Notes: generated by a model from the letters alone, not told the origin. 64,000 nucleotides of DNA from Naegleria gruberi (GCA_000004985.1 GG738903.1); one strand, 5' to 3'; positions 15,387 to 38,051 are shown, counted from the first letter of the stretch. Translations and numbers: made by a program.

Positions 15387-16028
15387 TTACTCCTCATCAA
15401 TTAATTGTTCTCTTCCATCTTGATCCATTCCAGATTCATTGAGATGATCAATATCATCTGCACCCATATTTTCCTCAGTTAACATATCCAACCAACGAAT
15501 ATTTGCCAAGCAACCAATCACTGCAATCACCCAATAAACTTCACACAAACAAACAACCAGAAATGAAATTATAACCAGTGCACTTTCTCCAGTCATGTAC
15601 CATAAGAATATGCACACAAAGATGGCACCCAAACCAAGAACTGCTTGGAAAACAGCTCCGAAAAGGGAACACATGGCCATCCATCTTGGTGGTTGCTGTT
15701 TAAAGTTTAGAACAATCCAGATAATGGAGGTGATTACACAGCCAAAGACAATGATGGGTGAAGCAATTAGAACGTATCGAAAGACGACAAATTTATCACT
15801 GGTCGGGTTGGACGAAACTTGTGTAAAATAATAAATGTCAATGATTACTGAAAAGATAAAGACGAAGAGAGTTGTTAATAACTGTAGGATTGCCATGCCT
15901 TTGTAGGCGAACTTTTTCTCACCCAGACTTCTGGCAAGGTTGGAGAAGTATGACATTTTTTTTGTTAGAAGTTGGACGAATTTCCCAAATTGGACTTCAA
16001 CTTGTATCAATGCAGTGTCGGAACTCAT
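15387..16028 (-). CDS. Small four-TM (tetraspan) membrane protein with an acidic C-terminal tail
   Basis: Four hydrophobic helices (LLTTLFVFIFSVIIDIYYF, LIASPIIVFGCVITSIIWIVL, MCSLFGAVFQAVLGLGAIFVCIFLWY, LVIISFLVVCLCEVYWVIAVIGCL). First ATG at 16028. No family recognised. Confidence 0.4.
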   Translation of the reverse strand: MSSDTALIQVEVQFGKFVQLLTKKMSYFSNLARSLGEKKFAYKGMAILQLLTTLFVFIFSVIIDIYYFTQVSSNPTSDKFVVFRYVLIASPIIVFGCVITSIIWIVLNFKQQPPRWMAMCSLFGAVFQAVLGLGAIFVCIFLWYMTGESALVIISFLVVCLCEVYWVIAVIGCLANIRWLDMLTEENMGADDIDHLNESGMDQDGREQLIDEE

Positions 16029-19989: not shown

Positions 19990-20886
19990 TTATTCAACAA
20001 CATCACCACCATTAACATGAATGGTTTGACCAGTTACGTATGAAGAATCCTTACTTGCCAAGTAGACATAAGCTGTGGCGCATTCAAATGGTTGACCAGC
20101 TCGACCCAAAGGAGTAGATTTACCAAATTCCTTCATCTTATCCTCAGGGAATGTACTTGGAATAAGTGGAGTCCAGATTGGACCAGGAGCAACACTATTG
20201 ACAAGAATACCTCTTGAAGCCAAATTACTTGCCAATGATCGAGTGAAGGTAGTGATTGCTCCCTTAGTGGAAGAGTAATCCAATAAGACATCCTTGCCTC
20301 TGTAGGAAGTTACACTGGTAGTATTGATGATTCTACCGGTTTGATCTGGAAGATACTTGAGTGCAGCTCTTGCCATGTAGAAATAGGAAAAGATATTTGT
20401 TTTGAAGGTATTTTCCAGTTGTTCATCACTGATATCTGTCAAATCTTGTTGAACAGTCTGAGTAGCTGCATTATTGACGAGAATGTCGAGTTTGGAGAAT
20501 TCCTTAACTGTCTTTTCAACTGCCTGATTACAAAAATCAGAAGTTCTAACATCTCCTGGAATAAGAAGACATTTTCTTCCTTCCTTTTCAATGAGTTGTT
20601 TTGTTTCTTGAGCATCCTTCTCCTCTTCCTTCAAGTAGACAATTGCCACATTGGCTCCTTCTCTGGCAAAGAGGATTGAAACTGAACGTCCAATTCCTGA
20701 ATCACCTCCAGTAATGAGAGCAACCTTGTCACGTAACTTGTTAGATCCTTTGTAATAGTCTGGATCGTCGTATTGTGGAGCAGTGAGCATGACATGCTCA
20801 AGACCTGGTGGTGATTGTTCTGGTTGCTTTCTGACTTCCTCCTTTGAGAATGAGGTTGGTTTGGATGATATTTGGCCAGTTGACAT
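19990..20886 (-). CDS. Short-chain dehydrogenase/reductase, classical SDR (bacterial YghA / general-stress-protein-39-like)
   Basis: 298 aa. Cofactor-binding motif TGGDSGIG, NNAA motif, catalytic YSSTKGA (YxxxK) and PGPIWTPL. The long N-terminal extension before the Rossmann fold is typical of the YghA/GS39 subgroup. True ATG start. Confidence 0.8.
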   Translation of the reverse strand: MSTGQISSKPTSFSKEEVRKQPEQSPPGLEHVMLTAPQYDDPDYYKGSNKLRDKVALITGGDSGIGRSVSILFAREGANVAIVYLKEEEKDAQETKQLIEKEGRKCLLIPGDVRTSDFCNQAVEKTVKEFSKLDILVNNAATQTVQQDLTDISDEQLENTFKTNIFSYFYMARAALKYLPDQTGRIINTTSVTSYRGKDVLLDYSSTKGAITTFTRSLASNLASRGILVNSVAPGPIWTPLIPSTFPEDKMKEFGKSTPLGRAGQPFECATAYVYLASKDSSYVTGQTIHVNGGDVVE

Positions 20887-22314: not shown

Positions 22315-23321
22315 TCAAAACGAAACATCGCCACTGTATCCTTGTGAATAAGGCCCTTCTCCTGCTATTGTTTCAATAATTCCATTCCTTGATACCTTTC
22401 GAATAGCATTATTGCCACTATCGGATATATACATTTCATCGTTGGAAGAAACAAAAACATGCATTGGATAATTGAGTTGGGCATTTGTTGCTGAGCTACC
22501 ATCTCCTTCAAATCCATCATTTCCATTTCCTGCTATTGTTTTAATTATTCCACTTTTAGAACCTTTCTAATTCTAAAATTATTAGAATCTGTAATATAAA
22601 TTTCTCCATTAGAGTTTACAAATGTGCTCATTGGACAATTGAGTTGAGCCTGAGTGGCCAATCCGTCATCTCCACTGAATCCTTCGTTTCCATTTCCAGC
22701 TATCGTTTCAATTATTCCACTTTTCGAAACCTTTCTAATACGATGATTTGCTGAATCCGTAATATATACCTCTTCGTTGAATACAAATACATTCATTGGA
22801 CAGTTGAGCTCGGCATTAATTGCCAAACCACCATCTCCTGAACATCCTAATTTTCCATTTCCTGCTATTGTTACAATATTTCCGTTTTGTAAAACCTTTC
22901 TAACTCGATTATTCAGATAATCCGAAATATAAACTTCTCCATTTTCTGAAACAAACACACTCGTTGGATAATTTAATTTGGCATTAATAGCTGGACCATT
23001 ATCTCCTTCAAATCCACCTTCTCCATTTCCAGCAATCGTTTCAATTATTCCATTATTCGAAACCTTTCTAATTCGATGATTATGATAATCTGCAATATAT
23101 ACTTCCTCCTTTACAACAAACACACCATTTGGATAATTTAATTTAGCATTAATTGCCAATCCACCATCACTCGAAAACCCCAATTCACCATTCCCTGCTA
23201 CTGTCATGATTTTCTGATTATTTAATTTTCTAATTCGATGATTGTTGCAATCAGCGATAAAAATTTCATCATTTGATGAAACAAAAACGCACGTGGGTCC
23301 GAAGAGTTGAATTGGAGGCAT
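22315..23321 (-). pseudogene. NHL-repeat (six-bladed beta-propeller) protein gene interrupted by a single-base frameshift near 22559; pseudogene or sequencing error
   Basis: ORF 22545..23321 holds five or six repeats of the form IETIAGNG..GFSGDGGLAINAKLNYP..VFV..NGEVYI.D..NHRIRKV. The next two repeats continue downstream in the -1 frame to a stop at 22315-22317. At the join the sequence reads AGAAAGGTTCTAAAAGTGG where every other repeat has …AAGGTT TCT AAA AGT GG (IRKVSKSG), so one T is missing. Confidence 0.55.
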
Positions 23322-23439: not shown

Positions 23440-24459
23440 CGATCGAGGAATAATAAACTAAAACTAAAGGAAAGTCTATACATTAATTTAGTTTTAATTA
23501 TTATTTACAAATTATTAGTTTTTAAATGACTATTTTCCAAGGGCCTTATTTAACAATTCCACAGTGTGTTTCCAAACTGTTTCTCTGATACTATCGCTAT
23601 GACTCTTTGTCACTTTTGCTGGCTCTCCATGTTCATCCAATAAATGGAAACCCTTCCGTGTCGATTCTGAACTTAATCCCTTGTAAATATTGTCGGCACA
23701 TTGTTCTGGAGATCTGGCAAAGTTTTGGAAGAAACGTGTGGTCCATCTCACGACAGCTGGCATTTCACGTCCCCATTGTGTGGCAATGAATCCAGGAGCT
23801 TGATGAATGAATGCAATATTTTGATTGCCTTCCTCTTTGGATAATTGATCCATGGCTAGATCATTGTAAAATCCAGCTGCATCTGCTGCATTCTTCAATG
23901 TAAAATTGTGTTTCAAATCCAAATCATCCAATTTAGTGTAAGGTGAATGAACACCAGCTGATAAAACAGTCAAGACTCTCACATCTGAATTCTTTGATGT
24001 CAATCTCAATAAATCTTGCAATTGTCTCACAAACATAACTCTTCCATAATAATGAAGTGCCAATTTAACATCAATTCCTTCCTTTGTTTCTGTTCTTCCA
24101 TTCATACTTGCAATTCCCTGTGAGAGAACACAATAATCCAATCGATCATGATTTTGTTTATATTCCTCACACACTTTTTCAATATCCTTCATGAGAGAGG
24201 CATCCACTTTGATCATTTCAAACTTTCCTTCTGGATTCAATTTTTTCATTTCTTCAATAATTTCCTTTCCTGCTTCTTCACTTCTTCCCATAATTGAAAC
24301 ATTGAATTTTTGAGAGGCAAATTTAATTGCCAATGCTCTTCCGATACCTGATGTACCTCCAACACACAGTGCTTGTTTAGTAGCCATTTTTGTTTCTGAT
24401 AAATTTGTAGAGATGATTGTTGTTTTGTTTTTTTTTGAAATTATTTGAGAGATTTGCAA
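23440..24459. repeat. Copy A of a ~1.1-kb inverted segmental duplication (SDR gene plus proximal promoter plus ~75 bp of 3' UTR)
   Basis: Reverse complement matches 36088..37110. It is identical over the 5' two-thirds of the CDS and the proximal promoter, ~95% over the 3' UTR, and visibly diverged in the 3' third of the CDS. Confidence 0.8.
23530..24387 (-). CDS. Short-chain dehydrogenase/reductase, inverted paralog A of 36176..37036
   Basis: N-terminal TGxxxGIG-type motif (VGGTSGIGRALAI), NAG/Rossmann core, Tyr/Lys region. The first ~205 codons and ~75 bp of 5' flank are nucleotide-identical to the + strand copy at 36176. The ORF-track extension to 24576 is an open frame upstream of the conserved ATG (MATKQALCVGG) and is not supported by the paralog. 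Confidence 0.75.
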   Translation of the reverse strand: MATKQALCVGGTSGIGRALAIKFASQKFNVSIMGRSEEAGKEIIEEMKKLNPEGKFEMIKVDASLMKDIEKVCEEYKQNHDRLDYCVLSQGIASMNGRTETKEGIDVKLALHYYGRVMFVRQLQDLLRLTSKNSDVRVLTVLSAGVHSPYTKLDDLDLKHNFTLKNAADAAGFYNDLAMDQLSKEEGNQNIAFIHQAPGFIATQWGREMPAVVRWTTRFFQNFARSPEQCADNIYKGLSSESTRKGFHLLDEHGEPAKVTKSHSDSIRETVWKHTVELLNKALGK

Positions 24460-25574
24460 GAAGTTTTTATTCGCTGCGTTCATCCGGGAAGACTTTGAGG
24501 CATAAGTACAAAAAAATTGATAAACACCACTGGTCCCAGCACAATTTGACCCTCCACCATTGTTAATCTGAGTCATCTCTCATCAGGAAATCTTCTCTCT
24601 TCAACCTCTGCGTATTGGATGGTACTTCTCTTGTTTGAATGTATTTTGAAGGTTCCAGTTGATAACCGAAACGATATGTTCTGAGCACTCTTTCCAGCAT
24701 AGAAGCTTTGAAAGTATGCTCAGCACATAATTGACATCATGATAAATTATTGGAAAGTGAGCAATCATGGTTGTTCAACACTGTAGTTCCTTCTTTCGTC
24801 AGCAAAATGAACAGAAAGTTATACCACTCACCATATTTATAAATAATCTATTTTTATTAATTGCTATTTTTATTATTTTTTAATTGAAATTAATTTTTAT
24901 TAACATTAATTTCAATTAAAAAAAAATGCCTAAACCAAATCATCTGATCCTGAACCATGGCAGTTAATGAAGAAAGTAAGTAGTTTATAGTAAATAATTA
25001 ACAATTTGAACAGAATTAATTGAGTTATTCAGTGAAACTCAAAAACAAGCCTAAATCCAATTTAAACTAAAACAATTGATCAACGTAAGTTTTTTTATCA
25101 TTTCAACTTTTATTTAACTAAAAACCTAGTCCGCACAATCAAACCAGCAACAGCAGTCATTAACAAATGTAAGTTTAAACCGATTTATTTATTGATGATT
25201 AACATATTTTTTTGTTAAATATCTGAAATTTTCAACTGTCACAAAGAGAAGGGTATTGAGTTGATTCATTAGTTGTAAGTCACTTTTCTTTTATTGTTAT
25301 TAATTCAAAACTAACAAGAATACATTATTGAAGAGCCCTTAACTGACCCGAAGAGGATGATCTTGAAGAAGGCTGACAGAACTCATGGTGCTTCAAATCA
25401 ACTGTTTCTTCTTGGCCTTTTCGTTAGCACTGAATCAATGATGATTAAGCTTATATTACGGCTGTGATGTGGTGCCATTTTTTTGTTGATTACTTCCAAT
25501 TTATTTAGGTTGACCACAACTATTTTCAATAAACATTTTTCTTCAACTACAAGTCAAATCAAGTCTTCTGAGAA

Positions 25575-25720
25575 CAATGTAAAGTGAGCAATCTGAGCAC
25601 ACATACTAGCACACCCCCCAGAACAGTGCTCAGAAGACTTCTCAGCACACCTCTCAGAACTGTGCCCAGATCAATCCCAGCACAGATTCCTAGCACAGTG
25701 CCTAGAAGTGTGCTGGAGAT
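25575..25720. repeat. Degenerate short tandem repeat, about 12 copies of a (C/T)TCAGCACAG(T/A)G-like unit
   Basis: Direct reading shows tgagcacacatactagcacac…gtgctcagaag…ctcagcacacc…cccagcacag…ctagcacagtgcctag…gtgtgctgg. Related TGAGCAC/GTGCTCAG words recur at 24672, 24712 and 24755. Confidence 0.5.
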
Positions 25721-25769
25721 GATTTACCTGGGAAGCCCCTGGGATGACCACTCGGAATAAATTGCTTTT

Positions 25770-25833
25770 GAAAAAGATAAATTGATGCGCACGCAGCTTG
25801 GATGTGCTGAGGAAAATTAAAACGTACGAGCAG
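25770..25833. repeat. Conserved ~64-bp noncoding block shared with 36005..36068 (inverted orientation); outer edge of the SDR duplication unit
   Basis: Reverse complement is CTGCTCGTACGTTTTAATTTTCCTCAGCACATCCAAGCTGCGTGCGCATCAATTTATCTTTTTC. Copy B is CTGCTCGTACGTTTTAATTTCCCTCAACACTTACAAACTGCGTGCGCACCAATTTTTCTTTTC. Both contain the palindromic words CGTACG and TGCGTGCGCA. Copy A lies 35-100 nt past the stop of the Cys-rich 7TM gene. Copy B lies 108-171 nt upstream of the SDR-B ATG. Confidence 0.6.
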
Positions 25834-25867
25834 AGATTTCATTTCTACTACTGTTTGGCTCATTGTT

Positions 25868-27503
25868 TCAATTTCCAATAACTTCAGAATAGTAATTAGT
25901 GCTAGATTGTTCTGGATGATGATGAAGAAGAAGTGGTGAATGATTGGAGGAAAAATTTTGTTTGGATTTGAAACAACAGGAATAGCAAGATTTCAATTCA
26001 TCCATTTCGAATTCAATGTTGAGTAAACTGGCTGTAACGAGAAGGAGAATTAAGCTTGATAATATGTCGAGGGTTTGTTTCAGAGCACTTTCATTGGAAA
26101 TGCCAAGACTTAGGGCAATAGAAATGCAGAATGCAATGTAAACTAGAGTGATAAATACAAGATATTTGGCAAACTGAAAGATTTCGAATATAATTTAGAA
26201 AAGGTTAATGAAGAAACATACCTGACTTTTCCAAATGCTCACATCTGAAACTTTCTTCAGTGCTCTTCCAATAATTATTCCAAAAATTACGAATACTATT
26301 CAAATTGTAAATAGATTGCGAACCATTTCATAACTTACCTAATAGAGCAAGTGAAAATCCATTCAAAAAGTAAACTTTGGTCAAGACACGTTCCTTTGGC
26401 AAAACAAGAAGCATAGTTATTGGAACTGCAACTCCAAAAAATGACATTAGAAATGGAATTCCATAAATCAACAAGCTGTAAATTAAATTCTTCTTATTGA
26501 AAAAAACCAAAACCTTCCTCATCCAACCTCCCAACCATGAGAAGAGTGCCAACAATAATATAATATTCAAACAATCAATAATAGTTGGTACAATTAAGGC
26601 AATACCGTCTTCTGGATCTAACACAACAGCAAACATGTAAAATATTGCCTCTATCAATAATTTGAGCATTGTGTAAGAAATGGTGAGCATGTGAAAGAAT
26701 GACTTTGTTCTGATTGAATGGACCAGTTTTGGAATAAACACAATAAATAATCCAATAAAAAACTCTCCAACAATAATAGATTCCAACAATGCACGAATGG
26801 CAATGTGAATTATTTTGTCACTATTATAAGGTAAACATTTTGGTTGGTAGTATCCATTTGATAAACAAGTGCAATAGTAGGAAAATTCATTTTTGGACAG
26901 TTCACTTGTTTTAGATTTTGAATTATTGAACAGGAATGGAATTCCATATTCGAATGTTCCACAAAATAGCATTGAAGTTGGAAAATTGGTAATGGCCTGT
27001 TGTACAATCTCATTGTTTGCTTTACATTCCCTTCTCCTCACCAAATCTCTAAACACAACACTGTTATTTCCACAATATTGACATGCATTGATCCATTCCT
27101 CAACTGAACTATCCGAATGTTTCATCAAATTGTGCATGGAATTTTCTGGTAATCCACCACATAATACATCTATACAAGTTCTATTCCACTTGACCTCCAA
27201 ATTCCTAATCTTTTTGCAAATATTTTCATTCGAAACAATATTAATTCGTTCACCATCCCACTTGACCTTCTCCGTATAAAGTACATCTTCACATGAAAAT
27301 CCATCAGGAATCCAACTTTCAATATAAATATCATCAATTGAACCCGACATTTTCGAAGAAACTCCTGAACATTGCTGAAAGAAAGGATTCAGCCACTGCA
27401 AAGAGTAAACATTACCAGAAATAAAAATTAAAATAATTAAAAGACTGATCACACTTCCCAATGATGTAGAAGAGATGTTCTTGTGAGATTCAAATCGATG
27501 CAT
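25868..27503 (-). CDS. Seven-TM receptor with N-terminal signal peptide and Cys-rich extracellular domain (Frizzled/CRD-like architecture), three exons: 27503..26338, 26294..26221, 26172..25868
   Basis: Exon 1 ORF (391 aa) has a signal peptide, ~14 Cys in the ectodomain and four TM helices. It ends inside a GTAAGT donor. A 43-nt intron (26295..26337, …TTGAATAG) gives exon 2, VFVIFGIIIGRALKKVSDVSIWKSQ (TM5 plus basic loop). A 48-nt intron (26173..26220, GTATGT…TCTTTCAG) gives exon 3 with TM6/TM7 (YLVFITLVYIAFCISIAL, ILSSLILLLVTASLL) and a Cys-rich tail to the stop at 25868. All phases are consistent. Confidence 0.6.
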
Positions 27504-27764
27504 TTTTTTCTTTTGTAAATTGGCGGGAAATTTGATCTCTAGAAATTTATTGAAATGTGAAAACTAGTCGAACACAACAAATCAATAAATAGTATGGATG
27601 TAGAAAATTCCAGAATTATCTTGCGCTGTAATATTGTTTACAAGGAGCTTTAAATTAAATCTCCTGCGGAGTAACTCCTCAAACACTTCGTCGTGATTCT
27701 TGTGTTGTTTTTTCTTATCTCTTAAAAAAATGTCAAGATCGATTCTCGGCAATGCCTTTGTGTT

Positions 27765-28478
27765 GTGTTCCTTGTTGGTAATCTTTGCATTTGTTCCATT
27801 ATTAGTGGTGGTAAATTAAAGTATTCGAAACAAAGTATCAAAGAACCTCAACGTCCACTTCTTGCTCCACACTTTACCATGAAATGGAGAATTGTTGCCT
27901 CTACCAATGACAATTCTAGTATTCCACTTGATTGGCATCCTCTTCCACCAAAGAATGTGAAATACATGCTTGGTACTGGAACTACCTATTATGATTGGTC
28001 TCAAAAAGCCATGTTAGAAGTTTATGATGATTATTGTGTTCCAATCTTTGGTCCACTCACAGACAAGATCAATCAATTCAGATGTAATTTCCTTAATGTT
28101 AATTTGACAAGTTATCTCATTAGTTTGGATCCATCTCCATTTCCAAAATGTTGTGTGTTTGGTGAACAAGTTTTCCATCCTCCAGAACCAACCTTTTTGA
28201 ACAACATGTTCTACAATTCAAGTGCTGCACTTTTTGGTAAGCCAGTGGATTGGTGGGTTTTGGATACTGATCAGAATGATCCTGCAGAACCTTTCGGATA
28301 TGGTTTCTATCCAAAAGATCAAGTTAGTGGCTATCAAACACCTGCTGCTTTTTGGTTTAGAACTGTTGATGGATTTTCTATTCAATATTTCAAAGATTTT
28401 GAAGTGAAAAAGCCAGATCCATCTGTTTGGAAATTACCTTCATATTGTGTCAATGCTCCATCGTGTGGATATTTGTAA
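27765..28478 (+). CDS. Hypothetical Cys/Trp/Pro-rich protein, possibly secreted via a short 5' exon
   Basis: 237-aa ORF; track start is a GTG codon. An upstream ATG at 27730 encodes MSRSILGNAFVLCSLL followed by a GTAATC donor. A 44-nt interval ending TTAAAG re-enters this ORF in phase (…YSKQSIKEPQRP…). The in-frame internal ATG (MKWRIV…) is the alternative start. No domain recognised. Confidence 0.35.
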   Translation: MFLVGNLCICSIISGGKLKYSKQSIKEPQRPLLAPHFTMKWRIVASTNDNSSIPLDWHPLPPKNVKYMLGTGTTYYDWSQKAMLEVYDDYCVPIFGPLTDKINQFRCNFLNVNLTSYLISLDPSPFPKCCVFGEQVFHPPEPTFLNNMFYNSSAALFGKPVDWWVLDTDQNDPAEPFGYGFYPKDQVSGYQTPAAFWFRTVDGFSIQYFKDFEVKKPDPSVWKLPSYCVNAPSCGYL

Positions 28479-29002
28479 ATTAAATTGATCAAATTAAAAA
28501 AGTTTTTCTTTATCAACTTTATTCGGAAGCCTTCTTCCTATCCAAGTTGGTGATGAAGAAGGTTTTGTATTTTTTATTTTTTTATTAAAATATTTAACGG
28601 TAATGTTGTGAGGCAACAAACACAATTGTCCATAAATAACATTAAAAACAACTTTGGAATAATAATTCACTATTTAAATCTTTTCAATACCATTCAACCA
28701 TTCTCTAACAACAAATCAAAGGTAACTTCTTTGCTGCTTTAAAATTTGCCGCCAAAACCAAGTACAATTTTCTTTAATACCGCCCACATGTTTATCCAAG
28801 TACATCACCACCAACCGATTAATGTTTTCCCTCGTAACAACACGTTCACCGTAAAGTTTCAGCAAACGCATCATAGGATTGTTATCACTAAAATTCAAAA
28901 AAAAAAATAGACGCACCCGATCCTGCCTTAATCAAGCTAGGAATTTGCAATACGATTTTGTATAATAATCAAACCCTATAATAATCATATACACTAGAGA
29001 AA

Positions 29003-29809
29003 ATGGGAAGTGCTTGTTCTTCGACCTCTAATGTTGCCGAAAAGGAAAAAGTTGAGGATGAACCAAAGACTCACAGAAGTACTAAGAAGGAATCATTCAA
29101 GAAGGAGCCACCAAAGGAACAAAAAGATCATGATGATAACAAATCAACAACCTCATCAAAATCGAGTAAATCAGGAAAACATAAACCAGCTAAGGTAGAG
29201 GAACAGGCAAAAGAAGTGCAAGCTGAAGAGGAAACTACATCGGAGAAAAAACAAGAAGAAACAAGTGAATGTGGATCGAATTCACCTCCAAAAATTGAGG
29301 AAAAGGCAGAAATTGAAGAGGAAGCTGAAGAAATTGAAAACAAGGAAGAAGAAGATAAGGAGGAAAGTGAAGAGGAAGCCGAAGAAGTAGACAATAAGGA
29401 GGAAGAAAATAAGGAAGAAGAGGCAAATGAGGAAGTAGAAGAGGAAGCTGAAGAAGTAGAAAACAAGGAGGAAGAAAATATGGAAGAAAATGAAGAAGAA
29501 TCATCTGAAAAGGTAGAAGAAGATTTGGAAAAGTTACAGGAAGATATTGAAAAGGTTGAGCAGGCTCTCGAAGAAGCTGAAGAACAACTTGATGAGCTTG
29601 AAAAGGAAGAAGAAAACCAAGAAGAAGCCAATGAAGAAGCAGAAGAACAACAGGAAGAAGAGCAGGAAGAGAAGGCAGCTCTCGATGAAGAGGAAGGAGA
29701 TGTAATGCAACCAGAAGATGACAATATTCAAGGTCTTGACAACCAAGAAGATGAACAAGCCGAAGCTGAACCAGAAGCAGAAGTTCAGGGTGGAGGTGAC
29801 GATGAATAA
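29003..29809 (+). CDS. Acidic Glu/Lys-rich protein with an N-terminal dual-acylation motif (MGSACSS: myristoyl-Gly2, palmitoyl-Cys5)
   Basis: 268 aa, more than 40% Glu. Tandem EEEAEEVENKEEEN-like units from GAA/GAG-rich DNA. Starts MGSACSSTSN at a true ATG. Confidence 0.55.
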   Translation: MGSACSSTSNVAEKEKVEDEPKTHRSTKKESFKKEPPKEQKDHDDNKSTTSSKSSKSGKHKPAKVEEQAKEVQAEEETTSEKKQEETSECGSNSPPKIEEKAEIEEEAEEIENKEEEDKEESEEEAEEVDNKEEENKEEEANEEVEEEAEEVENKEEENMEENEEESSEKVEEDLEKLQEDIEKVEQALEEAEEQLDELEKEEENQEEANEEAEEQQEEEQEEKAALDEEEGDVMQPEDDNIQGLDNQEDEQAEAEPEAEVQGGGDDE

Positions 29810-30397
29810 TCAATAGTAAAATTGTACATTAAAAACTTTAAGCAAAACAGATTACTGAATCTCAGATAGCATAGTGATGTAGTCCGTCATGAGTTGGTGA
29901 CACGCCGGTCTCCTCGGTTAATAATTAATGTGTAAATAAAGTTTTCCATCATATGAAACAGTATTAATGAAACCAAAAGTTTCACTTTGCCGAATGTGTT
30001 TTCAAAACAGTAAATCTTGTTAATTAATTTTTGTTCTTTTTTATTGTGGTTAGAATTTTTTATTGTTAAATCAAAAACTGCAGCAAGAAACAACTCCCTA
30101 AAAACTGTTACTAGTTTTAATCCCTTACGGATTTAATTAATTTCAAATAATCAGTTTGAAGCATTAATACTCAATTTTCTTAAGTAAAATACAGAGTATC
30201 TTCTCCTATAGTCAGAAATACAACTTTTGTGGTTGTGGTTCGGTAAATTCATTTATAAACAATGAAATGTTTTCCACAGTTAATATTCTAATTGAATTTT
30301 TTATTTACAATTAGTTCTTAATTTGGTAACCGACTTTACTATTACAATTGTATATTATTTTACATTATTTTAAAAAATTAATTTCACAAAAAAAAAT

Positions 30398-31354
30398 TTA
30401 AAGCTCATCAAAACTTTCCAATTCCTCCGTTTCAGTGTGTTCATCCTCCGTTGTTGATAAATTATCTTCAAATTGAGCAACTTGTTGTTTCAATTGTTGA
30501 ATTTCCAAATCTCTTTCAATAAGATCCTTATAGAGAGATGAGATAATCTTATTGTACTTGTTCATTTGTTCTTGAATGCTTTGTACCTTTCTCTCAGTCT
30601 TTGCCTTTTCCTTCTTTTTCTTCTTCTTTTCTTCCACTGAAAAGAGAGCTTTAAGTTTTCTAGGAGAGGCCATTGGTTCACTCCATGTGTCATTGTCAAA
30701 TTCTGATGAATTTCTATGATTGGAATTTGGAATTGGAATGAATAATTTGGATCTTTCTGTTTGTTGAGGAGTGACGTGAATAGGAGAATGATCATTCGAT
30801 GGACTAACTGGAGACATGGATTCACAGGTTGAAATCTCCTCTGAGGAGGTGGTGATCGTGGGAGGGAAGGAATGCTCTCTAGTGAGAGAGCTAGTGTTTG
30901 GAGAGGGAGTTTTCGATTGATTGGTCGAGTGAACATTTAACAGAGCTCCTGCTGATTTGGTAACAATTGGTTTGGAGAAGACCTCTGGGAAATCATTTGG
31001 ATTTCTCTTTTGAATTCTGTCAATGAGAAACATTTCATAATCGTCCGAATCTTCCACATATTGGTCGAATAGAATTTTCAATTGTTTGATGAGCTCGGCC
31101 TGTAATGGCTCGAAAATTTGCATAAAATCTTCACTCGTTAATCCATATTGTCGTCCACTTTCATTCTGAACTTGAAAAGATTCGTATAATTGTTTCACTT
31201 CATCCTCCTTCAATGATTTAAATCGAAACGTCATTGAATTTCCTCTCTTTCTCTTTACAATCGGTTCCTCAACCTTTAACTGATTCATAAACGATTGTTC
31301 ATCCTTATTAGATGTAGTAGATGCAGATGGTGAAGAATTCTTATTCGGTCTCAT
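30398..31354 (-). CDS. Hypothetical protein with a C-terminal coiled-coil/leucine-zipper-like region
   Basis: 318 aa, true ATG. Ser/Thr/Pro-rich middle, Lys-rich KKKKKKEKAK tract, heptad-like IISSLYKDLIERDLEIQQLKQQVAQFED. No family recognised. Confidence 0.4.
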   Translation of the reverse strand: MRPNKNSSPSASTTSNKDEQSFMNQLKVEEPIVKRKRGNSMTFRFKSLKEDEVKQLYESFQVQNESGRQYGLTSEDFMQIFEPLQAELIKQLKILFDQYVEDSDDYEMFLIDRIQKRNPNDFPEVFSKPIVTKSAGALLNVHSTNQSKTPSPNTSSLTREHSFPPTITTSSEEISTCESMSPVSPSNDHSPIHVTPQQTERSKLFIPIPNSNHRNSSEFDNDTWSEPMASPRKLKALFSVEEKKKKKKEKAKTERKVQSIQEQMNKYNKIISSLYKDLIERDLEIQQLKQQVAQFEDNLSTTEDEHTETEELESFDEL

Positions 31355-31409
31355 TGAAAATCGTTTAAAAAAATGTGAAATACTACTCGTCTTTTCATGA
31401 GAAACTTTC

Positions 31410-32060
31410 TCATTCGAATTCGACTTCTGGAATTGCTGCTGCCGCTGCTGGTGCTTGCTCTTCCACCACAGTTTCCAATTTCACACTCGTAAATATAGCA
31501 TTCCACAATTCTGTCCACTCTTTCATTCGAATAAAATTCTCAAATTTTTCACAAATTTTTCGTTGCATTTCTCTTGATATTCCTAATAAGGAATGTGCAC
31601 TCGAAGACAAAACAGTATCAATATTATCGGAGTGTTTAACATCCACAACACTGACAAGATACTTTCTTATAATTCTGTCATATATTCTAATAAGTGAAAT
31701 TATTTGATTGCTTTCAAATGTCAATTTATATTTGACATTCTCCAATTCTGTCAGACAACTCAATAATCCTCTTCTATTCTTCTTAAACAGAAACTGTTCG
31801 AAAAATTCTCGATTTTCAATATTTGTTCTTTGTTTTACCATTTCGGAATTTTTAATTTCATCGCTGCCACTTGTCGAAATGATATTAATATTTAATCCAG
31901 CATAAATAACCCCAGCAAAAGAAAAGCAATCTTTATGAAATGGTTTTTTCTGACTATAGTGTGGAATTTGAAACGAACTGCCACATGTCAAAGTTGGTGC
32001 TGATGGTGGTGGTTTCAATGTCAAGGTTGGAATCATCACCGGTTGATTATTAGCTTTCAT
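31410..32060 (-). CDS. Hypothetical protein, 216 aa
   Basis: True ATG start, complex composition, poly-Ala tract near the C-terminus. No domain recognised. Confidence 0.35.
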   Translation of the reverse strand: MKANNQPVMIPTLTLKPPPSAPTLTCGSSFQIPHYSQKKPFHKDCFSFAGVIYAGLNINIISTSGSDEIKNSEMVKQRTNIENREFFEQFLFKKNRRGLLSCLTELENVKYKLTFESNQIISLIRIYDRIIRKYLVSVVDVKHSDNIDTVLSSSAHSLLGISREMQRKICEKFENFIRMKEWTELWNAIFTSVKLETVVEEQAPAAAAAIPEVEFE

Positions 32061-32510
32061 GATGATTCAACCTGCAAGTTATGAAATTTTTTTTTGATGA
32101 TGGTTGAAAATTGTCAAATTTCTGCCGTCAACCAAAAAACCGACCGACATGCAAAAGTGCGAACTAACAAATTTGTACAAATTGAGGTTGGTTAGGGTTT
32201 TGAATTGTGTTGACCTTGAAAATTTAAGGGTGTGTGATTTTACTGTTACATCGCAAGGTGTTGGAAAATCTTTTTAATTTTTCAAATTGGAAAGGAGAAA
32301 CTGTTAAAACTAAAGCTGAATAAGTTGAGCGAGTTCTAATCTTGGAATGAGATGCTTTTAACCAATACTTTGTAATCATGATTTTTTCATGCAATTATTT
32401 CTTACAATCAAAAGTTTCATTCCTATAAGGAAGTACTAAGGAAGACCTGAAACTTTTCAATAATAAAACAATTTCCAAAAAGTAAACTAACTGGGTTTAA
32501 AAATAAATAA

Positions 32511-35390
32511 TTATTTAAATATTTGTACACGATGATTGTGATAATCTACTACAACGAGATGACCTTCACTTGTGATTGAAACTCCATTAGGTCCATCGAA
32601 TTGTCCATCTTCAGAACCATAACATCCAAATTGTTTGATAATTACACCCTCTCTCAAGTTCCAAATTTGAATTCTATTGTTTGCATAATCGCAAATGGCT
32701 GCAAAATTGAGACCAATATTTTTCTTCAAACAACAAATACCAGTTGGGTCACATTCAGAATTTTCTTGTTTCTTGACAGAGAATTTTCTAACAAAGGTAC
32801 CATCCAATGTAAAAACTTGGACTCTACAATTGTATCTATCAGTGATTACCAAATTACCATCAATGTCAATATCCAAACTGTTAGGTCCATAGAAATAACC
32901 TCCTTCCATTTCTGGATTAGTACCATTAGTTCCAAAAGATTTGAGGAATGAGCCATACTTGTCAAACATTTGAATTCTGTGATTATGATGGTCACATACA
33001 ATAATTTTACCAGGTATTTGAGACTTGGTCTCTGAAACAATAATACCAGTTGGATAACTGAAATGACCATACTCTGCTCCCTTTGAACCAAACTTTCCAA
33101 CCTCAGTTCCAGACTTATCAAAGGCATACACACAATGATCATCACTAGTAACAAGGATTACACCCTCCTTGGCATCAAAAGTGACACCGTATGGTTTAGG
33201 GACTGAGAACTTTCTCAAAAACTTTCCTTGCTTGTCGAATATTTGAACACGATTGTTCTCATTATCACAAATTATGATATTATCACTCGGATCTATGGCG
33301 ATATCGGTTGGGCTGGAAAATTGACCGTCTTCTGTTCCTTTTCCACCAAAACCTAAAACGAATTTACCCTCAATTTTACATTTGATTTCTTGGGTAGGTA
33401 TTACAGGAGTGTTTGGACTACTGTGAACGGATGGAGAGCTTGTACAGCTTGAGGATGATACATTACTATTAGCATTGGATGAAGGAGCATTCTTTGGACC
33501 AATGGCACCAAGTTTGTCTATTGATTCCATGAGTTCTTTCATCGAATCAAAATTTACACAAACATCCAAAGTATCAGACAAGTAACTTCTATCAATCTTT
33601 CTTAAATTTTCTTGGAATTGTTGAACAAGTACAGGAATGAGTAAACTCTTCTTGGTCTTGGATTGAATAAATTCAGCCAAGTCCATCTTGGAAAGATTTT
33701 CCATAAAACCGTCTGTCAAAAACTTAATTTGAGATAATTGTTGCATTCCACTGTTCAAAATCTTTTCACAAATTTCATCTTCACAACAAATTTTCCACTT
33801 TTCTGTCAATTCCTTTCTCTTTTGAGCCAACCTCTTTTCCAAGATATCAAAATTTTCATTGATCGACTTGACGCCATCTTCATAAGTGTGAGATATTGTT
33901 CCCTTGTCACGAGCTAATTTTTCCATTTTTTCTGAAATGTTTTGTTGCATTTGGAAAATTTGGTTTTTAAGCTCTTGTTTTTCTTTTTGATAAACTTCTT
34001 CAACTAGGTCACAGTCATGTCCCTTGTGCTTTGAAATGGCACAGATAGCACAAATCAATTCATCTCCACAAGTATGACACCAAGTGTTCAACTTTTGGTC
34101 TTTGTGGGTTTCACAACAATCAGTCAATGGTCTTAAATTATGGTGGTTAGTACTGACACTTGTTGGGGAAGTAACAGTTTTGTCCACATTTGATGATACT
34201 GATGATGAATTAGAAACAGTGCCACTAGTATTAGAAACAGTGCTACTAACAGACAAGGAAGCAGACAAAGTAGAAGCAATGGATGAAATTGCCGAACCGA
34301 TCGAATTGGCGAATCCTGATGATGTAGTCGGAGTGGAAGCTACACTTCCAGTTGGTGTTGAAGTGTTGCTACTCATTGATACTGTAGCTACTGATGGTTT
34401 GTTTGTTGTTGTTGCACTTGTATTGGTAACAGGGATAAGACCAACAGGTGTTCCGTTTGAGAATTTTCTTTTTGATTGTGGAGATCCAGGTGTAGCTTGG
34501 ACAGATGAATTATTGGCTGTGGTTGGAGAACCTTGTGGTTGTGGCTCCTTCTTTGGGATGTGAAGTCGAGGAGAGGTGTTAGATGGACTTTGGTGTTGTT
34601 GTTGCTGCTGTTGTTGTTCCATAATTTGGTGCATGGCTGATCCGAGCATAATAGGAGAGGATGAAAGAAGGGCAGCTGCACTAATATTCGAAGTTGAAGT
34701 TCCATGAACTGGAGTCATGGATGATGGAGTACTGGTAGAGTTGATTCCTTGTGATTGAACTGAAGATGGTAGCGTCTTGATATTAATTGGTGTCAAGTTG
34801 AGAATATCACTCTCCTTGCTGGATGGACTCATCATGATATTATTATTATTCATTGTTATTCCTTTTGATGGACTTCCAATAATTGCAACTCCACTATTGA
34901 AATTGTTAATTGGAGTATTATTTGATGATTGTGTTGTTATTGTTGAAGAGGATGATGAAGATGGAGAGTTTCTTGTTGGTGTTGCACTTGAAGGTGATTG
35001 ATATTGTTGAGTGGGAGAACGAACGCTTCCATTGGTTGGAGTGGTTGTTGGAGTTGAGTGATCAATCACTGTTGGTGAATTATTGGTAGGACTCTTCATA
35101 TTATGTGCTGGAGGTGGACTAGATGAAAACAGATGAAGCGCCTGAGGTCTTCTTTCATCCAAAATACATTCTTCACTCTCATCGACTTGTTTTACATTAT
35201 CAATAATAACTTCTTCTAACATTGGAGATTGTGGTTCAATATCTATTGATCTATTGTTGGAGGAGGAGGTAGAAGAACTGTGGGTATGATGTTGAAAATC
35301 ATCAGAATCATCAAAGTGAAACAATTCTTCTTCTACAATAGTTTCCGAATATCCTGTATGTTGTTGAAAATCATCAGCCTGATCAGACAT
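32511..35390 (-). CDS. B-box / coiled-coil / NHL-repeat protein (TRIM-NHL architecture without a RING finger; Brat/NCL-1-like) with a ~400-aa Ser/Thr/Asn/Gln-rich N-terminal region
   Basis: 959 aa. B-box-type zinc finger CETHKDQKLNTWCHTCGDELICAICAISKHKGHDC. ~150-aa coiled coil. Six NHL repeats (…GQFSSPTDIAIDPSDNIIICDNENNRVQIFDKQGKF…). No C3HC4 RING pattern upstream. Homopolymeric Q, N and S runs. Confidence 0.75.
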   Translation of the reverse strand: MSDQADDFQQHTGYSETIVEEELFHFDDSDDFQHHTHSSSTSSSNNRSIDIEPQSPMLEEVIIDNVKQVDESEECILDERRPQALHLFSSSPPPAHNMKSPTNNSPTVIDHSTPTTTPTNGSVRSPTQQYQSPSSATPTRNSPSSSSSSTITTQSSNNTPINNFNSGVAIIGSPSKGITMNNNNIMMSPSSKESDILNLTPINIKTLPSSVQSQGINSTSTPSSMTPVHGTSTSNISAAALLSSSPIMLGSAMHQIMEQQQQQQQHQSPSNTSPRLHIPKKEPQPQGSPTTANNSSVQATPGSPQSKRKFSNGTPVGLIPVTNTSATTTNKPSVATVSMSSNTSTPTGSVASTPTTSSGFANSIGSAISSIASTLSASLSVSSTVSNTSGTVSNSSSVSSNVDKTVTSPTSVSTNHHNLRPLTDCCETHKDQKLNTWCHTCGDELICAICAISKHKGHDCDLVEEVYQKEKQELKNQIFQMQQNISEKMEKLARDKGTISHTYEDGVKSINENFDILEKRLAQKRKELTEKWKICCEDEICEKILNSGMQQLSQIKFLTDGFMENLSKMDLAEFIQSKTKKSLLIPVLVQQFQENLRKIDRSYLSDTLDVCVNFDSMKELMESIDKLGAIGPKNAPSSNANSNVSSSSCTSSPSVHSSPNTPVIPTQEIKCKIEGKFVLGFGGKGTEDGQFSSPTDIAIDPSDNIIICDNENNRVQIFDKQGKFLRKFSVPKPYGVTFDAKEGVILVTSDDHCVYAFDKSGTEVGKFGSKGAEYGHFSYPTGIIVSETKSQIPGKIIVCDHHNHRIQMFDKYGSFLKSFGTNGTNPEMEGGYFYGPNSLDIDIDGNLVITDRYNCRVQVFTLDGTFVRKFSVKKQENSECDPTGICCLKKNIGLNFAAICDYANNRIQIWNLREGVIIKQFGCYGSEDGQFDGPNGVSITSEGHLVVVDYHNHRVQIFK

Positions 35391-36087
35391 TTCTCGAAAG
35401 TTTAATAAATTATATTTGTAAAATTATTGTTGTTGTTGTTGATTCTCTCTTATAAGAGTTTGATAAATAAATAAATATTGAATGATCACGTTTGTTCTTG
35501 ATTATACTATTGTATTATTATTATAATATTCGTTTTTTTTATCTTCGGAGATTTTAAATATGATATTATTATTGTTACTATTATTGTTGTTGTTGTAGTT
35601 GAGCAGCTATAACGGTTGCTGTTATTTGATGATGATAATATTATGTATTCTTCAAGAGTTTCAAAAAGCGAGCAAATTAATGACAACTTTAAAATCTTAC
35701 GAAAAATGGGGAACGTGTAGTGTAGAGATAATTTTTTGAAAATGGATGAGGAACTTCTATGCTTGTTATCTTATTAACAAATGTGAAATGTCAACCAAAT
35801 ATCTTGTAATTATCACTACAATACAATAATTTCCATGTTTGTGCACTAACTTTTGATGCGTTTTCATTCAAATTCATAAAATTTTGCAATGGACAAGTGT
35901 TCGATTCCTTAACTTGCACCAGCTCATTTTCTTTAAGAAAGGCACTAGGTACAGAACCAAGGTCTATTATTTTCTAATGTTTCTTATTGACATCCTAAAA
36001 CAATCCTGCTCGTACGTTTTAATTTCCCTCAACACTTACAAACTGCGTGCGCACCAATTTTTCTTTTCGGTAATTTAAAAACTTTTT

Positions 36088-37110
36088 CAAATCTCTCAAA
36101 TAATTTCAAAAAAAAACAAAACAAACAACATCTCTCTCATAGCTAATCATCTCTACAAATTTATCAAGAAACAAAATGGCTACTAAACAAGCACTGTGTG
36201 TTGGAGGTACATCAGGTATCGGAAGAGCATTGGCAATTAAATTTGCCTCTCAAAAATTCAATGTTTCAATCATGGGAAGAAGTGAAGAAGCAGGAAAGGA
36301 AATTATTGAAGAAATGAAAAAATTGAATCCAGAAGGAAAGTTTGAAATGATTAAAGTGGATGCCTCTCTCATGAAGGATATTGAAAAAGTGTGTGAGGAA
36401 TATAAACAAAATCATGATCGATTGGATTATTGTGTTCTTTCACAGGGAATTGCAAGTATGAATGGAAGAACAGAAACAAAGGAAGGAATTGATGTAAAAT
36501 TGGCACTTCATTATTATGGAAGAGTTATGTTTGTGAGACAATTGCAAGATTTATTGAGATTGACATCAAAAAATTCAGATGTGAGAGTCTTGACAGTTTT
36601 ATCAGCTGGTGTTCATTCACCTTACACCAAATTGGATGATTTGGATTTGAAACATAACTTTACATTGAAGAATGCAGCAGATGCAGCTGGATTTTACAAT
36701 GATCTCGCCATGGATCAATTATCCAAAGAGGAAGGCAATCAAAATATTGCATTCATTCATCAAGCTCCTGGAATTGTGGCTACTCAATGGGGTCGTGATT
36801 TTCCAACTGTTTTGAGATGGGCATGTGAAGTTGTCAAGGTAGTGGCTGCTAAATCTCCTGAGAAATATGCTGAATATACTTATAATGCATTGAGTTCAGA
36901 TTCTACACGAAAGGGCTTCCATTTATTGAATCAATACGGAGAGCCAGCAAGTGTGACAAAGAGTCATACTGATAATATCAGAGAAACAGTTTGGAAACAC
37001 ACTGTAGAATTGTTAAATAAGGCCCTTGGAAAATAATCATTTAAAAACTAATAATTTGTAAATAATAAACTAAAACTAAATTAATTTCCTAATTTCATTT
37101 GGATAGCTCT
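36088..37110. repeat. Copy B of the ~1.1-kb inverted segmental duplication carrying the SDR gene
   Basis: See copy A (23440..24459). Shared proximal promoter …AAATCTCTCAAATAATTTCAAAAAAAAACAAAACAA…ATCATCTCTACAAATTTATCA(A)GAAACAAAATG. Shared 3' UTR TTAAATAAGGCCCTTGGAAAATA(G/A)TCATTTAAAAACTAATAATTTGTAAATAATAA…. Confidence 0.8.
36176..37036 (+). CDS. Short-chain dehydrogenase/reductase, inverted paralog B of 23530..24387
   Basis: 286 aa. Residues 1-205 are identical to copy A (MATKQALCVGGTSGIGRALAIKFASQKF…FIHQAPG). The C-terminal ~80 residues are ~70% identical (IVATQWGRDFPTVLRWACEVVKVV… versus FIATQWGREMPAVVRWTTRFFQNF…). Confidence 0.75.
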   Translation: MATKQALCVGGTSGIGRALAIKFASQKFNVSIMGRSEEAGKEIIEEMKKLNPEGKFEMIKVDASLMKDIEKVCEEYKQNHDRLDYCVLSQGIASMNGRTETKEGIDVKLALHYYGRVMFVRQLQDLLRLTSKNSDVRVLTVLSAGVHSPYTKLDDLDLKHNFTLKNAADAAGFYNDLAMDQLSKEEGNQNIAFIHQAPGIVATQWGRDFPTVLRWACEVVKVVAAKSPEKYAEYTYNALSSDSTRKGFHLLNQYGEPASVTKSHTDNIRETVWKHTVELLNKALGK

Positions 37111-37169
37111 TCAAATTTTTATAGTATTAATGTCACAAAGCAAAACTTATTTATTGAACTTCAGATCAA

Positions 37170-38051
37170 TTAAAGAGAGTAAACTTCGTAATCTAGAGTG
37201 GTAAATTCACGAGTTGATCCAGTCAAGTAATCCTTTCCCAAATTTGAATAAGTGAATGGATTAGTGAAACTTTTCTTGGTACCTCTAGCAATGAAAATAT
37301 CATGTCCACCTCCAAAAGTTGGATGATCAACAGATCTATGATAAACTGAATAATTGACATATGCAGAATGTGGTCCATCTTGAATCAATTTCTTGAATCT
37401 TTCATCTCTCTTTGGTCCAATTAAACTAAATAAGAAAGCTTTGGAATCTGGGAAGAAATCCAACATTGCTGAACTCCAACTCACTGAAGTATAACCTCCA
37501 AAGATAGCTCCTGAGCTTGCCTTAATAATTGTTACAGTTGGTCCTTGATTATCACATTTTGAATGGAAAGATCTGGCTCTGAATCCATCCTTAGATGCAT
37601 TATAAAGTAATTTCATTGGTCTAGTTTTAACATCTTTCAACAATTCATCAATAAATCTCTTAGATTGATTTGCAGTTAAAAAAGTTGATTTTGACAAATC
37701 TCCAATTAATCCCAAATCCACCTTTGATTCCGTTTTCCTCTTACTTGTTCTCTTTTTAAGAATTTTCAGTTTAACGCTCTTTGATTTTGTTGGGTTGCCA
37801 TCCTTATTAGCATTCAAGGTAACCCGAGGAGCATTTCTATTCCTAACAACAACTGCTTGTTTACGCATCACCTTCTTACCATGTTGGTTTTGTTGTTGTT
37901 TTGATCGTTTTATTAATCTTGCTGTTGCCTTAATAGAAGCCTTGGTAGTTCCCTTAGCTTTCTTCCCCTCAACAGCAGAAACAACAACAACACTCAACAC
38001 GACCAACAGCAACAACAATAACAAGAAGAAAACGCCTCTCCTCATCATCAT
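37170..38051 (-). CDS. TLDc-domain protein with signal peptide and a Lys-rich basic region
   Basis: Signal-like MMMRRGVFFLLLLLLLVVLSVVVVSAVEG. C-terminal LLYNASKDGFRARSFHSKCDNQGPTVTIIKASSGAIFGGYTSVSW… is the TLDc pattern (LLYR.S.DGF…FH..CD..GPT.T.I……FGGYT…W). Confidence 0.6.
   Translation of the reverse strand: MMMRRGVFFLLLLLLLVVLSVVVVSAVEGKKAKGTTKASIKATARLIKRSKQQQNQHGKKVMRKQAVVVRNRNAPRVTLNANKDGNPTKSKSVKLKILKKRTSKRKTESKVDLGLIGDLSKSTFLTANQSKRFIDELLKDVKTRPMKLLYNASKDGFRARSFHSKCDNQGPTVTIIKASSGAIFGGYTSVSWSSAMLDFFPDSKAFLFSLIGPKRDERFKKLIQDGPHSAYVNYSVYHRSVDHPTFGGGHDIFIARGTKKSFTNPFTYSNLGKDYLTGSTREFTTLDYEVYSL

Follow-up and report, generated by a model that had tools for sequence, protein, structure and literature searches.

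An inverted pair of SDR-fold genes with near-identical ends and a diverged lid in Naegleria gruberi NEG-M: probable gene conversion, and a recombinant relative consistent with inversion of the intervening block

Concerted evolution in which a diverged segment escapes conversion is known from the primate red/green opsin genes and from RHD/RHCE, and concerted evolution by interlocus gene conversion has reportedly been modelled by Walsh and by Teshima and Innan. Conversion or inversion between the arms of inverted repeats is known from the human Y-chromosome palindromes, the plastid inverted repeats, and the factor VIII int22h inversion, which proceeds by non-allelic homologous recombination (NAHR). 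The system described here is a pair of genes with a short-chain dehydrogenase/reductase (SDR) fold, designated copies A and B, which lie in inverted orientation on one 304-kb scaffold of the heterolobosean amoeba Naegleria gruberi NEG-M (GCA_000004985.1, GG738903.1). The whole stretch analysed, called the window below, comprises 64,000 nucleotides. The two genes were found to be almost identical at both ends and highly diverged in an internal block encoding the lid of the protein. A and B probably represent an old inverted duplicate that has been kept alike by gene conversion except in the lid.

Both open reading frames (ORFs) are intact and match Pfam adh_short (E = 4.7e-16 for A and 4.1e-16 for B). 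Their start codons face each other, so the genes are arranged head-to-head and transcribed outward. A first-pass annotation of the window had described an inverted SDR pair bracketing an ~11.5-kb gene block; the two inverted genes were confirmed, and the spacing between A and B is 11.7 kb. Repeat detection resolved the pair into two long inverted arms, 23743-24418/36145-36820 (676 nt, 96%) and 23498-23719/36847-37068 (222 nt, 87%), and two short upstream arms, I3 (62 nt, 89%, 25772-25833 vs 36006-36067) and I4 (59 nt, 88%). No further copy of this SDR family is present within the window. When both sides were aligned with the related contig L001 described below, the repeat unit was delimited on the B side as ~1.07 kb (36002 to ~37085), comprising the whole gene, ~175 nt upstream, and ~49 nt of the 3' untranslated region (UTR). 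The sequence beyond this unit is unrelated on the A and B sides. The parts of the pair are as follows.

23530-24387, minus strand: coding sequence (CDS) of SDR copy A, 285 aa, stop codon counted in (P0003, EFC39023.1)
36176-37036, plus strand: CDS of SDR copy B, 286 aa, stop codon counted in (P0001, 100% identical to EFC38962.1/XP_002671706.1)
23791-24387, minus strand: copy A codons 1-199, the homogenised, probably converted segment, differing from B at 10/597 nt (1.7%)
23656-23790, minus strand: copy A lid, codons 200-244, RWTTRFFQ helix type, probably old and unconverted, differing from B at 48/135 nt
36773-36910, plus strand: copy B lid, codons 200-245, RWACEVVK helix type, with one extra codon
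23587-23655, minus strand: copy A tail patch, codons 245-267 (DEHGEPAKVTKSHSDS), with 6 replacements relative to B
36911-36979, plus strand: copy B tail patch, codons 246-268 (NQYGEPASVTKSHTDN)
23482-23529, minus strand: copy A 3' UTR homology, ~49 nt, after which the homology stops
37037-37085, plus strand: copy B 3' UTR homology, from the alignment to copy A
24388-24469, minus strand: proximal upstream homology (promoter/5' UTR) of copy A, from which 19 nt present in B and L001 are deleted
36068-36175, plus strand: copy B proximal upstream homology, from the alignment to copy A
25758-25833, minus strand: distal upstream element, A-side arm (I3-L), 62 nt at 89%, collinear with L001
36002-36067, plus strand: distal upstream element, B-side arm (I3-R), from repeat detection and the L001 alignment
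24470-25757, no strand: 1,288-nt (1.29-kb) insertion splitting the repeat unit on the A side, missing on the B side and in L001

The dN/dS values were calculated by the Nei-Gojobori method separately for each segment. The first ~205 codons had been annotated as nucleotide-identical, which proved too strong: all ten differences within codons 1-199 are synonymous (dN 0, dS 0.086). Divergence begins at the first base of codon 200, right behind an invariant Pro-Gly motif. In the lid (codons 200-244), dN was 0.35 and dS 1.26 (omega ~0.28), and the proteins are only 49% identical (codons 200-244/245) with a one-codon indel. The tail (codons 245-267) showed dN 0.137 and dS 0.28 (omega ~0.5), and the last 18 codons (268-285) encode identical protein with one synonymous change (dN 0, dS 0.09). 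The earlier figure was ~70% identity over the last ~80 codons; the last 87 aligned codons are ~66% identical, and this divergence is not uniform. It is not purely synonymous either, since the C-terminal part carries 29 amino-acid replacements in addition to the codon indel. Outside the CDS, a near-identical 3' UTR stretch had been put at ~75 bp and ~95%; such a stretch exists but covers only ~49 nt, with one mismatch and a 1-nt indel. The supposed ~75 bp of identical promoter corresponds to a proximal homology of ~82 nt on A and 108 nt on B, which is ~88% identical and contains a 19-nt indel, plus a further element of 62-76 nt.

The mosaic of A and B is real and non-random. Among codons for the same amino acid, 10/199 differ between the copies in the 5' part and 12/22 in the lid (Fisher p = 1.3e-8), and the best segment in a maximum chi-square analysis (codons 200-238) accounts for 45 of the 69 differences in the CDS, a value reached by 0/200 permutations. 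The ~15-fold contrast in dS is beyond any protein-level selective sweep, and the coalescence of the lid must therefore be much older than that of the rest of the gene. An old lid between young ends can result either from conversion of the ends of an old duplicate or from import of a foreign lid into a young one.

Two more N. gruberi paralogs on other scaffolds (P0004 and P0005) were found by protein search and allowed the phylogeny to be compared between segments. Over residues 1-199, A equals B, with an identity of 82% to P0004 and 78% to P0005; the bootstrap values of the N-terminal neighbour-joining (NJ) tree were 100% for (A,B) and 98% for ((A,B),P0004). In the NJ tree of the lid, (A,B) was recovered in <20% of replicates and (B,P0004) in 54%. 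The lid core (207-238) is 36% identical between A and B, 53% between B and P0004, 59% between A and P0005, and 56% between A and N. fowleri, so that the lid of copy A is nearest to those of P0005 and N. fowleri, and the lid of copy B to that of P0004. This topology is at odds with that of the 5' part, as conversion predicts. In the lid, P0004 is 53-54% identical to copy B at the protein level and is the only N. gruberi candidate returned by the protein search; a recent import of the B lid is less favoured, since the P0004 lid is too diverged to be its source. A third NEG-M sequence, P0125 (EFC35852.1), is located on a 12.2-kb scaffold and carries the A lid and the A tail with E53D, E74D, and A258T. 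Naegleria is treated as diploid, with loss-of-heterozygosity tracts (PMC9928731), and P0125 is most simply regarded as a second allele of copy A in heterozygous NEG-M. The E74D change is common to P0125 and L001 and may reflect an allele shared by the strains, or a haplotype of different structure that did not merge with the main scaffold.

AlphaFold (AF2) models of both copies were obtained using a 41-sequence alignment, with a predicted local distance difference test (pLDDT) score of 93.7 for A and 94.4 for B. Strand bF (191-196) is followed in the models by the PG motif (P198, G199; invariant in the 41 homologues) and then by a loop and two helices, located at 211-221 and 227-238 in A and at 211-224 and 228-239 in B. 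In copy A, strand bG (246-250), a loop (251-264), and the C-terminal helix complete the chain. The models support the proposal of the first-pass annotation that the diverged part is the substrate-binding lid, since it coincides in both copies with the bF-bG insertion, where classical SDRs have their substrate-binding loop. In both models, pLDDT is lowest in the lid (71-83). Judging from this topology, the lid changes would line the substrate pocket, and the two lids would presumably confer different substrate preferences. The B lid keeps the family-conserved P210, R214, W215, P227, E228, A231, and L238, and changes R218 to E, F223 to V, and C230 to Y, with one added residue; position 218 is basic in 33/41 homologues. 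This pattern fits a lid that has been altered, not one that has decayed.

In the Foldseek search, SDR structures only were retrieved (probability 1.0), with the best TM score to light-dependent protochlorophyllide oxidoreductase (0.78-0.81; 6l1g/6l1h/7jk9) and the best E-value to the FabG-like structure 4nbw. Like the classical SDRs, A and B have the Rossmann fold, the glycine motif TGxxxGxG (G10-x3-G14-x-G16, with the three glycines invariant in 41 homologues), PG after bF, and a two-helix lid. In contrast to them, sequence similarity stops near residue 135-153, the canonical YxxxK is missing, and a separate set of residues is invariant in the family. The match to Pfam stops at residue 144, and the PDB SDR profile matches mostly end at 97-153. 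The YxxxK motif does not occur at the expected start of helix aF (164-184), whose conserved residues are N166, A167, A168, A170, A171, Y174, and D176, and Y174 is followed by A178 instead of Lys. H112 aligns with the Asn of the tetrad and S143 is conserved, the alignment being of low confidence in the C-terminal half. The classical Asn-Ser-Tyr-Lys tetrad thus appears to be absent as a canonical motif, which is no proof of inactivity. In the 41 sequences, K108, H112, R116, D155, A168, Y174, D176, H195, and H263 are invariant, and Y113, Y114, S143, and H147 are nearly so; the four conserved histidines hint at another type of catalytic or metal site. For this widely distributed protist SDR family, the analysis found no characterised member, and A and B belong to an uncharacterised, atypical SDR-fold family.

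According to the favoured explanation, a complete ~1.07-kb gene unit would have been duplicated head-to-head long ago, and repeated recombination between the inverted copies would have homogenised the upstream region, codons 1-199, and the last ~20 codons with the 3' UTR. The lid (codons 200-244, with a less clear extension to 267) would have remained unconverted for a long time, with two lid types held under purifying selection. Its escape could be due both to selection against converted genes that lose one lid type and to the 36% nucleotide divergence, which would stop heteroduplex extension. Resolution by crossover would flip the 11.7-kb block and give each gene the 3' end of the other; with the crossover near codon 245, the product would be a gene with the 7TM (seven-transmembrane) flank, an A-type 5' end and lid, a B-type tail, and the TLDc flank, as in L001. 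An old pair with conversion is supported by the intact copies, the 0 replacements in 199 codons, the lid omega of ~0.28, and the confident SDR folds, and a mis-assembled haplotype is contradicted by the unrelated flanks outside the 1.07-kb unit. The first-pass annotation had offered gene conversion of the 5' part, diversifying selection on the lid, or both. The first is strongly supported by the dS of 0.086 versus 1.26, the discordant segment trees, and the natural recombinant L001; the second finds no backing in the omega values of the lid and tail.

L001 is a 4,366-bp metagenome contig from ENA (ERZ929261, run ERR1078381) that encodes P0002, a protein 91% identical to that of copy B. It originates from a very close relative of NEG-M, with 99.4% identity in the 7TM CDS, 97.4% in the TLDc CDS (L001 3872-4366), and 95.7-97.8% in intergenic DNA. 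Using BLAST, L001 1-2788 was aligned to the window 28499->25758 (reverse strand) and L001 2709-4366 to 36002-37661. The contig therefore has the order 7TM side, distal upstream element, SDR, TLDc gene, with the 1.29-kb insertion absent; in NEG-M, the 7TM side is upstream of copy A and the TLDc gene downstream of copy B. The SDR gene itself is recombinant. Its lid is 1/135 nt off A and 47 off B, and its tail is 1/69 nt off B, the sequence being B-like from about codon 245 to the contig end. The distance from the last lid-specific site (alignment column 862) to the first site of the tail cluster (column 875) is 13 nt, and with this spacing the combination of an A lid and a B tail must exist on real molecules, independent of the assembler.

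The inversion of the block predicted by the first-pass annotation receives partial support, as one of the expected junctions is seen in L001, although a single junction in a short metagenome contig does not prove it. We give about even chances to a flipped block, produced by crossover between the arms, as the origin of this junction; an ancestral single copy and a chimeric contig each have clearly lower chances. All three readings involve recombination at this repeat, and only the flipped block is the predicted inversion. The chimera, which we consider unlikely, would require no inversion: conversion would have given copy A of the L001 strain the tail and 3' UTR of B, and the assembler would have crossed over in the stretch then shared, estimated as ~156 nt (alignment columns 875-1031). 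The contig is short and has k = 127 in its name, a length that the shared stretch could exceed after such a conversion, and neither junction is confirmed by a second contig from the L001 sample. Yet this scenario needs a specific conversion plus the loss of two graph branches, while a real molecule needs one crossover, and L001 is collinear and evenly similar on both sides.

Several points weigh against an old, converted pair and an inversion. The dS of the lid is saturated, which makes its omega imprecise, and an episode of selection on the lid would be compatible with such a value. The grouping of the B and P0004 lids rests on ~46 residues and a moderate bootstrap of 54%. The comparison of possible donors of the B lid (P0004, P0005, and P0125) is one of proteins, and a donor at the nucleotide level is possible. 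At a few sites upstream of the gene and within its first 300 nt (19-nt indel, 4 SNPs), L001 is B-like, so a single crossover calls for later NEG-M changes specific to copy A or for short conversion tracts; the number of such sites fits the strain divergence of 0.6-2.6%. The alternative arrangement is represented by one junction, in a 4.4-kb MEGAHIT-style contig (k127), and neither the reciprocal junction nor a B-type lid of the L001 strain was found in sequence searches. With the 959-aa B-box/NHL protein of the block as query, all matches were orthologues at 53-57% identity, none of them on a contig of the L001 sample. The scan of JGI metagenomes with copy A gave only relatives at <=47% identity, and the search with the last 100 aa of copy B yielded no scored candidates and carries no weight.

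The whole pair can also be explained by a recent inverted duplication that occurred during an inversion in NEG-M, starting from a single 7TM-SDR-TLDc copy, with the B lid and the A tail patch imported from diverged paralogs. Inverted duplications at inversion breakpoints are a known result of staggered breaks. L001 has precisely the 7TM-SDR-TLDc order, and its P0002 combines the A lid with the B tail. The dS values over codons 1-199 are similar (0.086 for A-B, 0.096 for A-L001, and 0.114 for B-L001), as a near-simultaneous split would give, and N. fowleri and N. lovaniensis have a single copy at their SDR loci. What makes this account improbable is the lack of a plausible donor, the nearest match to the B lid being P0004 as noted above, and the need for two independent imports from unseen donors. 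Moreover, the pair in Willaertia magna demonstrates that this family can give rise to head-to-head genes whose ends are freshly converted and whose lid is old. An old duplicate with conversion thus remains the preferred reading.

A recent duplication followed by rapid diversifying selection in place on the lid codons is very improbable. It would agree with the concentration of the 29 replacements and the codon indel in the lid and tail, none falling in the first 199 codons, and with the alteration of the family-conserved R218, F223, and C230 in B, but selection on the protein cannot raise the lid dS ~15-fold over the rest of the gene, and omega is ~0.28. An origin of the pair in faulty assembly, whether by collapse or mis-joining of a repeat or by setting allelic haplotypes in inverted orientation, is hardly credible: NEG-M is heterozygous and has a third A-like protein on a separate scaffold (P0125), but the 69 CDS differences are structured, both ORFs are intact, homology ends sharply ~49 nt past the stop codon and ~175 nt upstream with unrelated, unique flanks, and the A-type sequence is independently confirmed by L001 and P0125.

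The W. magna pair (ABK040_001347/001348) consists of P0009 (4804-5946, minus strand) and P0008 (8001-8888, plus strand), located head-to-head 2 kb apart and present on two contigs that are 99.67% identical. Its 5' end differs at 0/270 nt and is preceded by ~45 identical upstream nt; residues 105-128 differ at 0/72 nt and the 3' end at 3/156 nt, while dS reaches ~1.5 in residues 91-104 and in the lid (213-243). The pair shares with that of N. gruberi the family, the head-to-head inversion, the near-identical ends, and the diverged lid, and differs from it in the 2-kb spacer (vs 11.7 kb), the extra diverged patch 91-104, and the lack of shared flank synteny. The mosaic mode of evolution recurs in this SDR family. 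P0008 (RWTTRCLQ) is similar to A (RWTTRFFQ) in the first helix of the lid, and P0009 (RWASNVVK) to B (RWACEVVK) and P0004 (RWAWNVGT). Lid clades crossing the genera were nevertheless rejected, the core helix being suggestive but the NJ bootstrap of the whole lid giving no support. Common ancestry of the Naegleria and Willaertia pairs is a minority possibility. It is rather doubtful that a head-to-head pair with two lid types (RW-TTR..Q and RW-A..VVK) predates the Naegleria-Willaertia split and was kept linked in both; if true, only the lid would have kept any history in the face of conversion, and the arms, by crossing over, would serve as a natural device for swapping modules and flipping the block, yielding combinations of lid, tail, and promoter such as L001. 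Another inverted repeat (10249-10586 and 15507-15845, ~335 nt, 95%) was observed in W. magna a few kb from the SDR pair (L006).

The SDR loci of N. fowleri, N. lovaniensis, and W. magna have no flanking genes in common with the window; in N. fowleri, the B-box/NHL and CCDC39-like genes are only loosely co-located. The single SDR gene of N. fowleri (VFQX01000032.1) contains a 90-nt phase-1 intron (L002 7362-7451) that splits the glycine codon of PG (CCA G|gtaagt...gaag|GA) no more than 2 nt from the end of A-B identity, a position with a chance of roughly 2-3%, and N. lovaniensis has a break at the same position (L013 ~10605-10690). This intron is absent from N. gruberi, W. magna, and two metagenomic relatives. 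As a cause of the mosaic boundary it was rejected, being specific to the N. fowleri and N. lovaniensis lineage and probably a coincidence. The frame of the N. fowleri gene shifts near codon 255 (L002 ~7630-7660), beside a GGGAAA run, and its protein P0010 ends in unrelated residues; the N. lovaniensis copy has several frame breaks. These may be sequencing errors or signs of decaying genes in the pathogenic clade.

The 1.29-kb insertion separates the distal upstream element of copy A from its proximal upstream region. By displacing part of the upstream region, it may affect the regulation of A. Within the window it occurs once, its ORFs do not exceed 62 aa, and Rfam and tRNA searches gave no match; its identification as a repeat or transposon, a gene, or a non-coding RNA was rejected on these grounds and for want of convincing terminal repeats. 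Several GTAAGT motifs, an AT-rich palindrome (24872-24927), and CAGCACA-like repeats at 12-nt spacing (25593-25715) were observed in it. A 63-codon in-frame extension of the copy A ORF (24388-24576, minus strand, ATG at 24576) lies partly inside the insertion and outside the annotated protein; it is probably meaningless but could yield an N-terminally extended isoform. The intervening block and the genes flanking the pair are listed below.

25834-36001, no strand: intervening block, from the 7TM gene to the B-box/NHL gene
26328-27503, minus strand: 7TM gene, in the block
27765-28478, plus strand: ORF, in the block
29003-29809, plus strand: ORF, in the block, encoding a highly acidic Glu/Lys-rich protein
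30398-31354, minus strand: ORF, in the block
31410-32060, minus strand: ORF, in the block
32511-35390, minus strand: B-box/NHL gene, in the block, 959 aa (TRIM-like)
37170-38051, minus strand: TLDc-domain gene flanking copy B (Pfam TLD, E = 4.9e-25)
22545-23321, minus strand: NHL-repeat gene, outer flank of copy A (Pfam NHL, E = 1.1e-29)

The acidic ORF (29003-29809) contains degenerate 15/39-nt repeats at 29297-29641 and has no Pfam match. Orthologues of the B-box/NHL ORF were found in N. fowleri, N. lovaniensis, and W. magna, and the database search gave no N. gruberi protein; the gene may be absent from the NEG-M annotation or modelled differently there. The outer NHL gene includes six ~165-168-nt repeats (NHL blades) at 22355-23274 that reach ~190 nt past the 3' end of the ORF (22545), and the gene is probably longer or interrupted. 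It was considered as a part of the duplication and rejected, as it is only 23% identical to the B-box/NHL gene. An unrelated third SDR-like ORF (298 aa, 19990-20886, minus strand) is located 2.6 kb outside copy A and resembles distant members of the family in their N-terminal Rossmann part, at ~31% identity.

For free-living heteroloboseans, a group poor in population and structural genomics, the pair offers a clean case of concerted evolution that can be quantified and in which a functional module is protected. It shows that homologous recombination between dispersed inverted copies goes on in natural lineages of the N. gruberi group, and inversion polymorphism at the locus is testable by PCR or long reads. 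The lid is nominated as a specificity determinant of an uncharacterised and widespread atypical SDR family, in which trees of whole paralogs would date duplications far too recently.

The locus resembles the described cases of concerted evolution in having paralogs of low dS, a short internal segment with high dS and many replacements, discordant trees, and recombinants in related genomes. It differs from them in the organism, a heterolobosean amoeba, in the inverted head-to-head arrangement of copies 11.7 kb apart, and in the nature of the escaping segment, the lid of an SDR, whose conversion may be blocked by selection or by sequence divergence alone. As in palindromes and inverted repeats, the arms flank a unique spacer, conversion would keep the arms similar, and crossover would flip the spacer; the switch point in L001 falls inside the repeat unit. 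Unlike those systems, the arms are single genes of ~1.07 kb, their identity is a mosaic of 98% to 64% instead of being uniformly >99.9%, and one junction of the flipped orientation has been seen. The mechanism is a textbook process, of which this locus is a well-documented example, and does not represent a new kind of system. Specific to this locus are the amoeba that carries it, arms made of one gene, protection of the SDR lid as a module, and a natural recombinant that ties the mosaicism of the gene to the exchange of its flanks.

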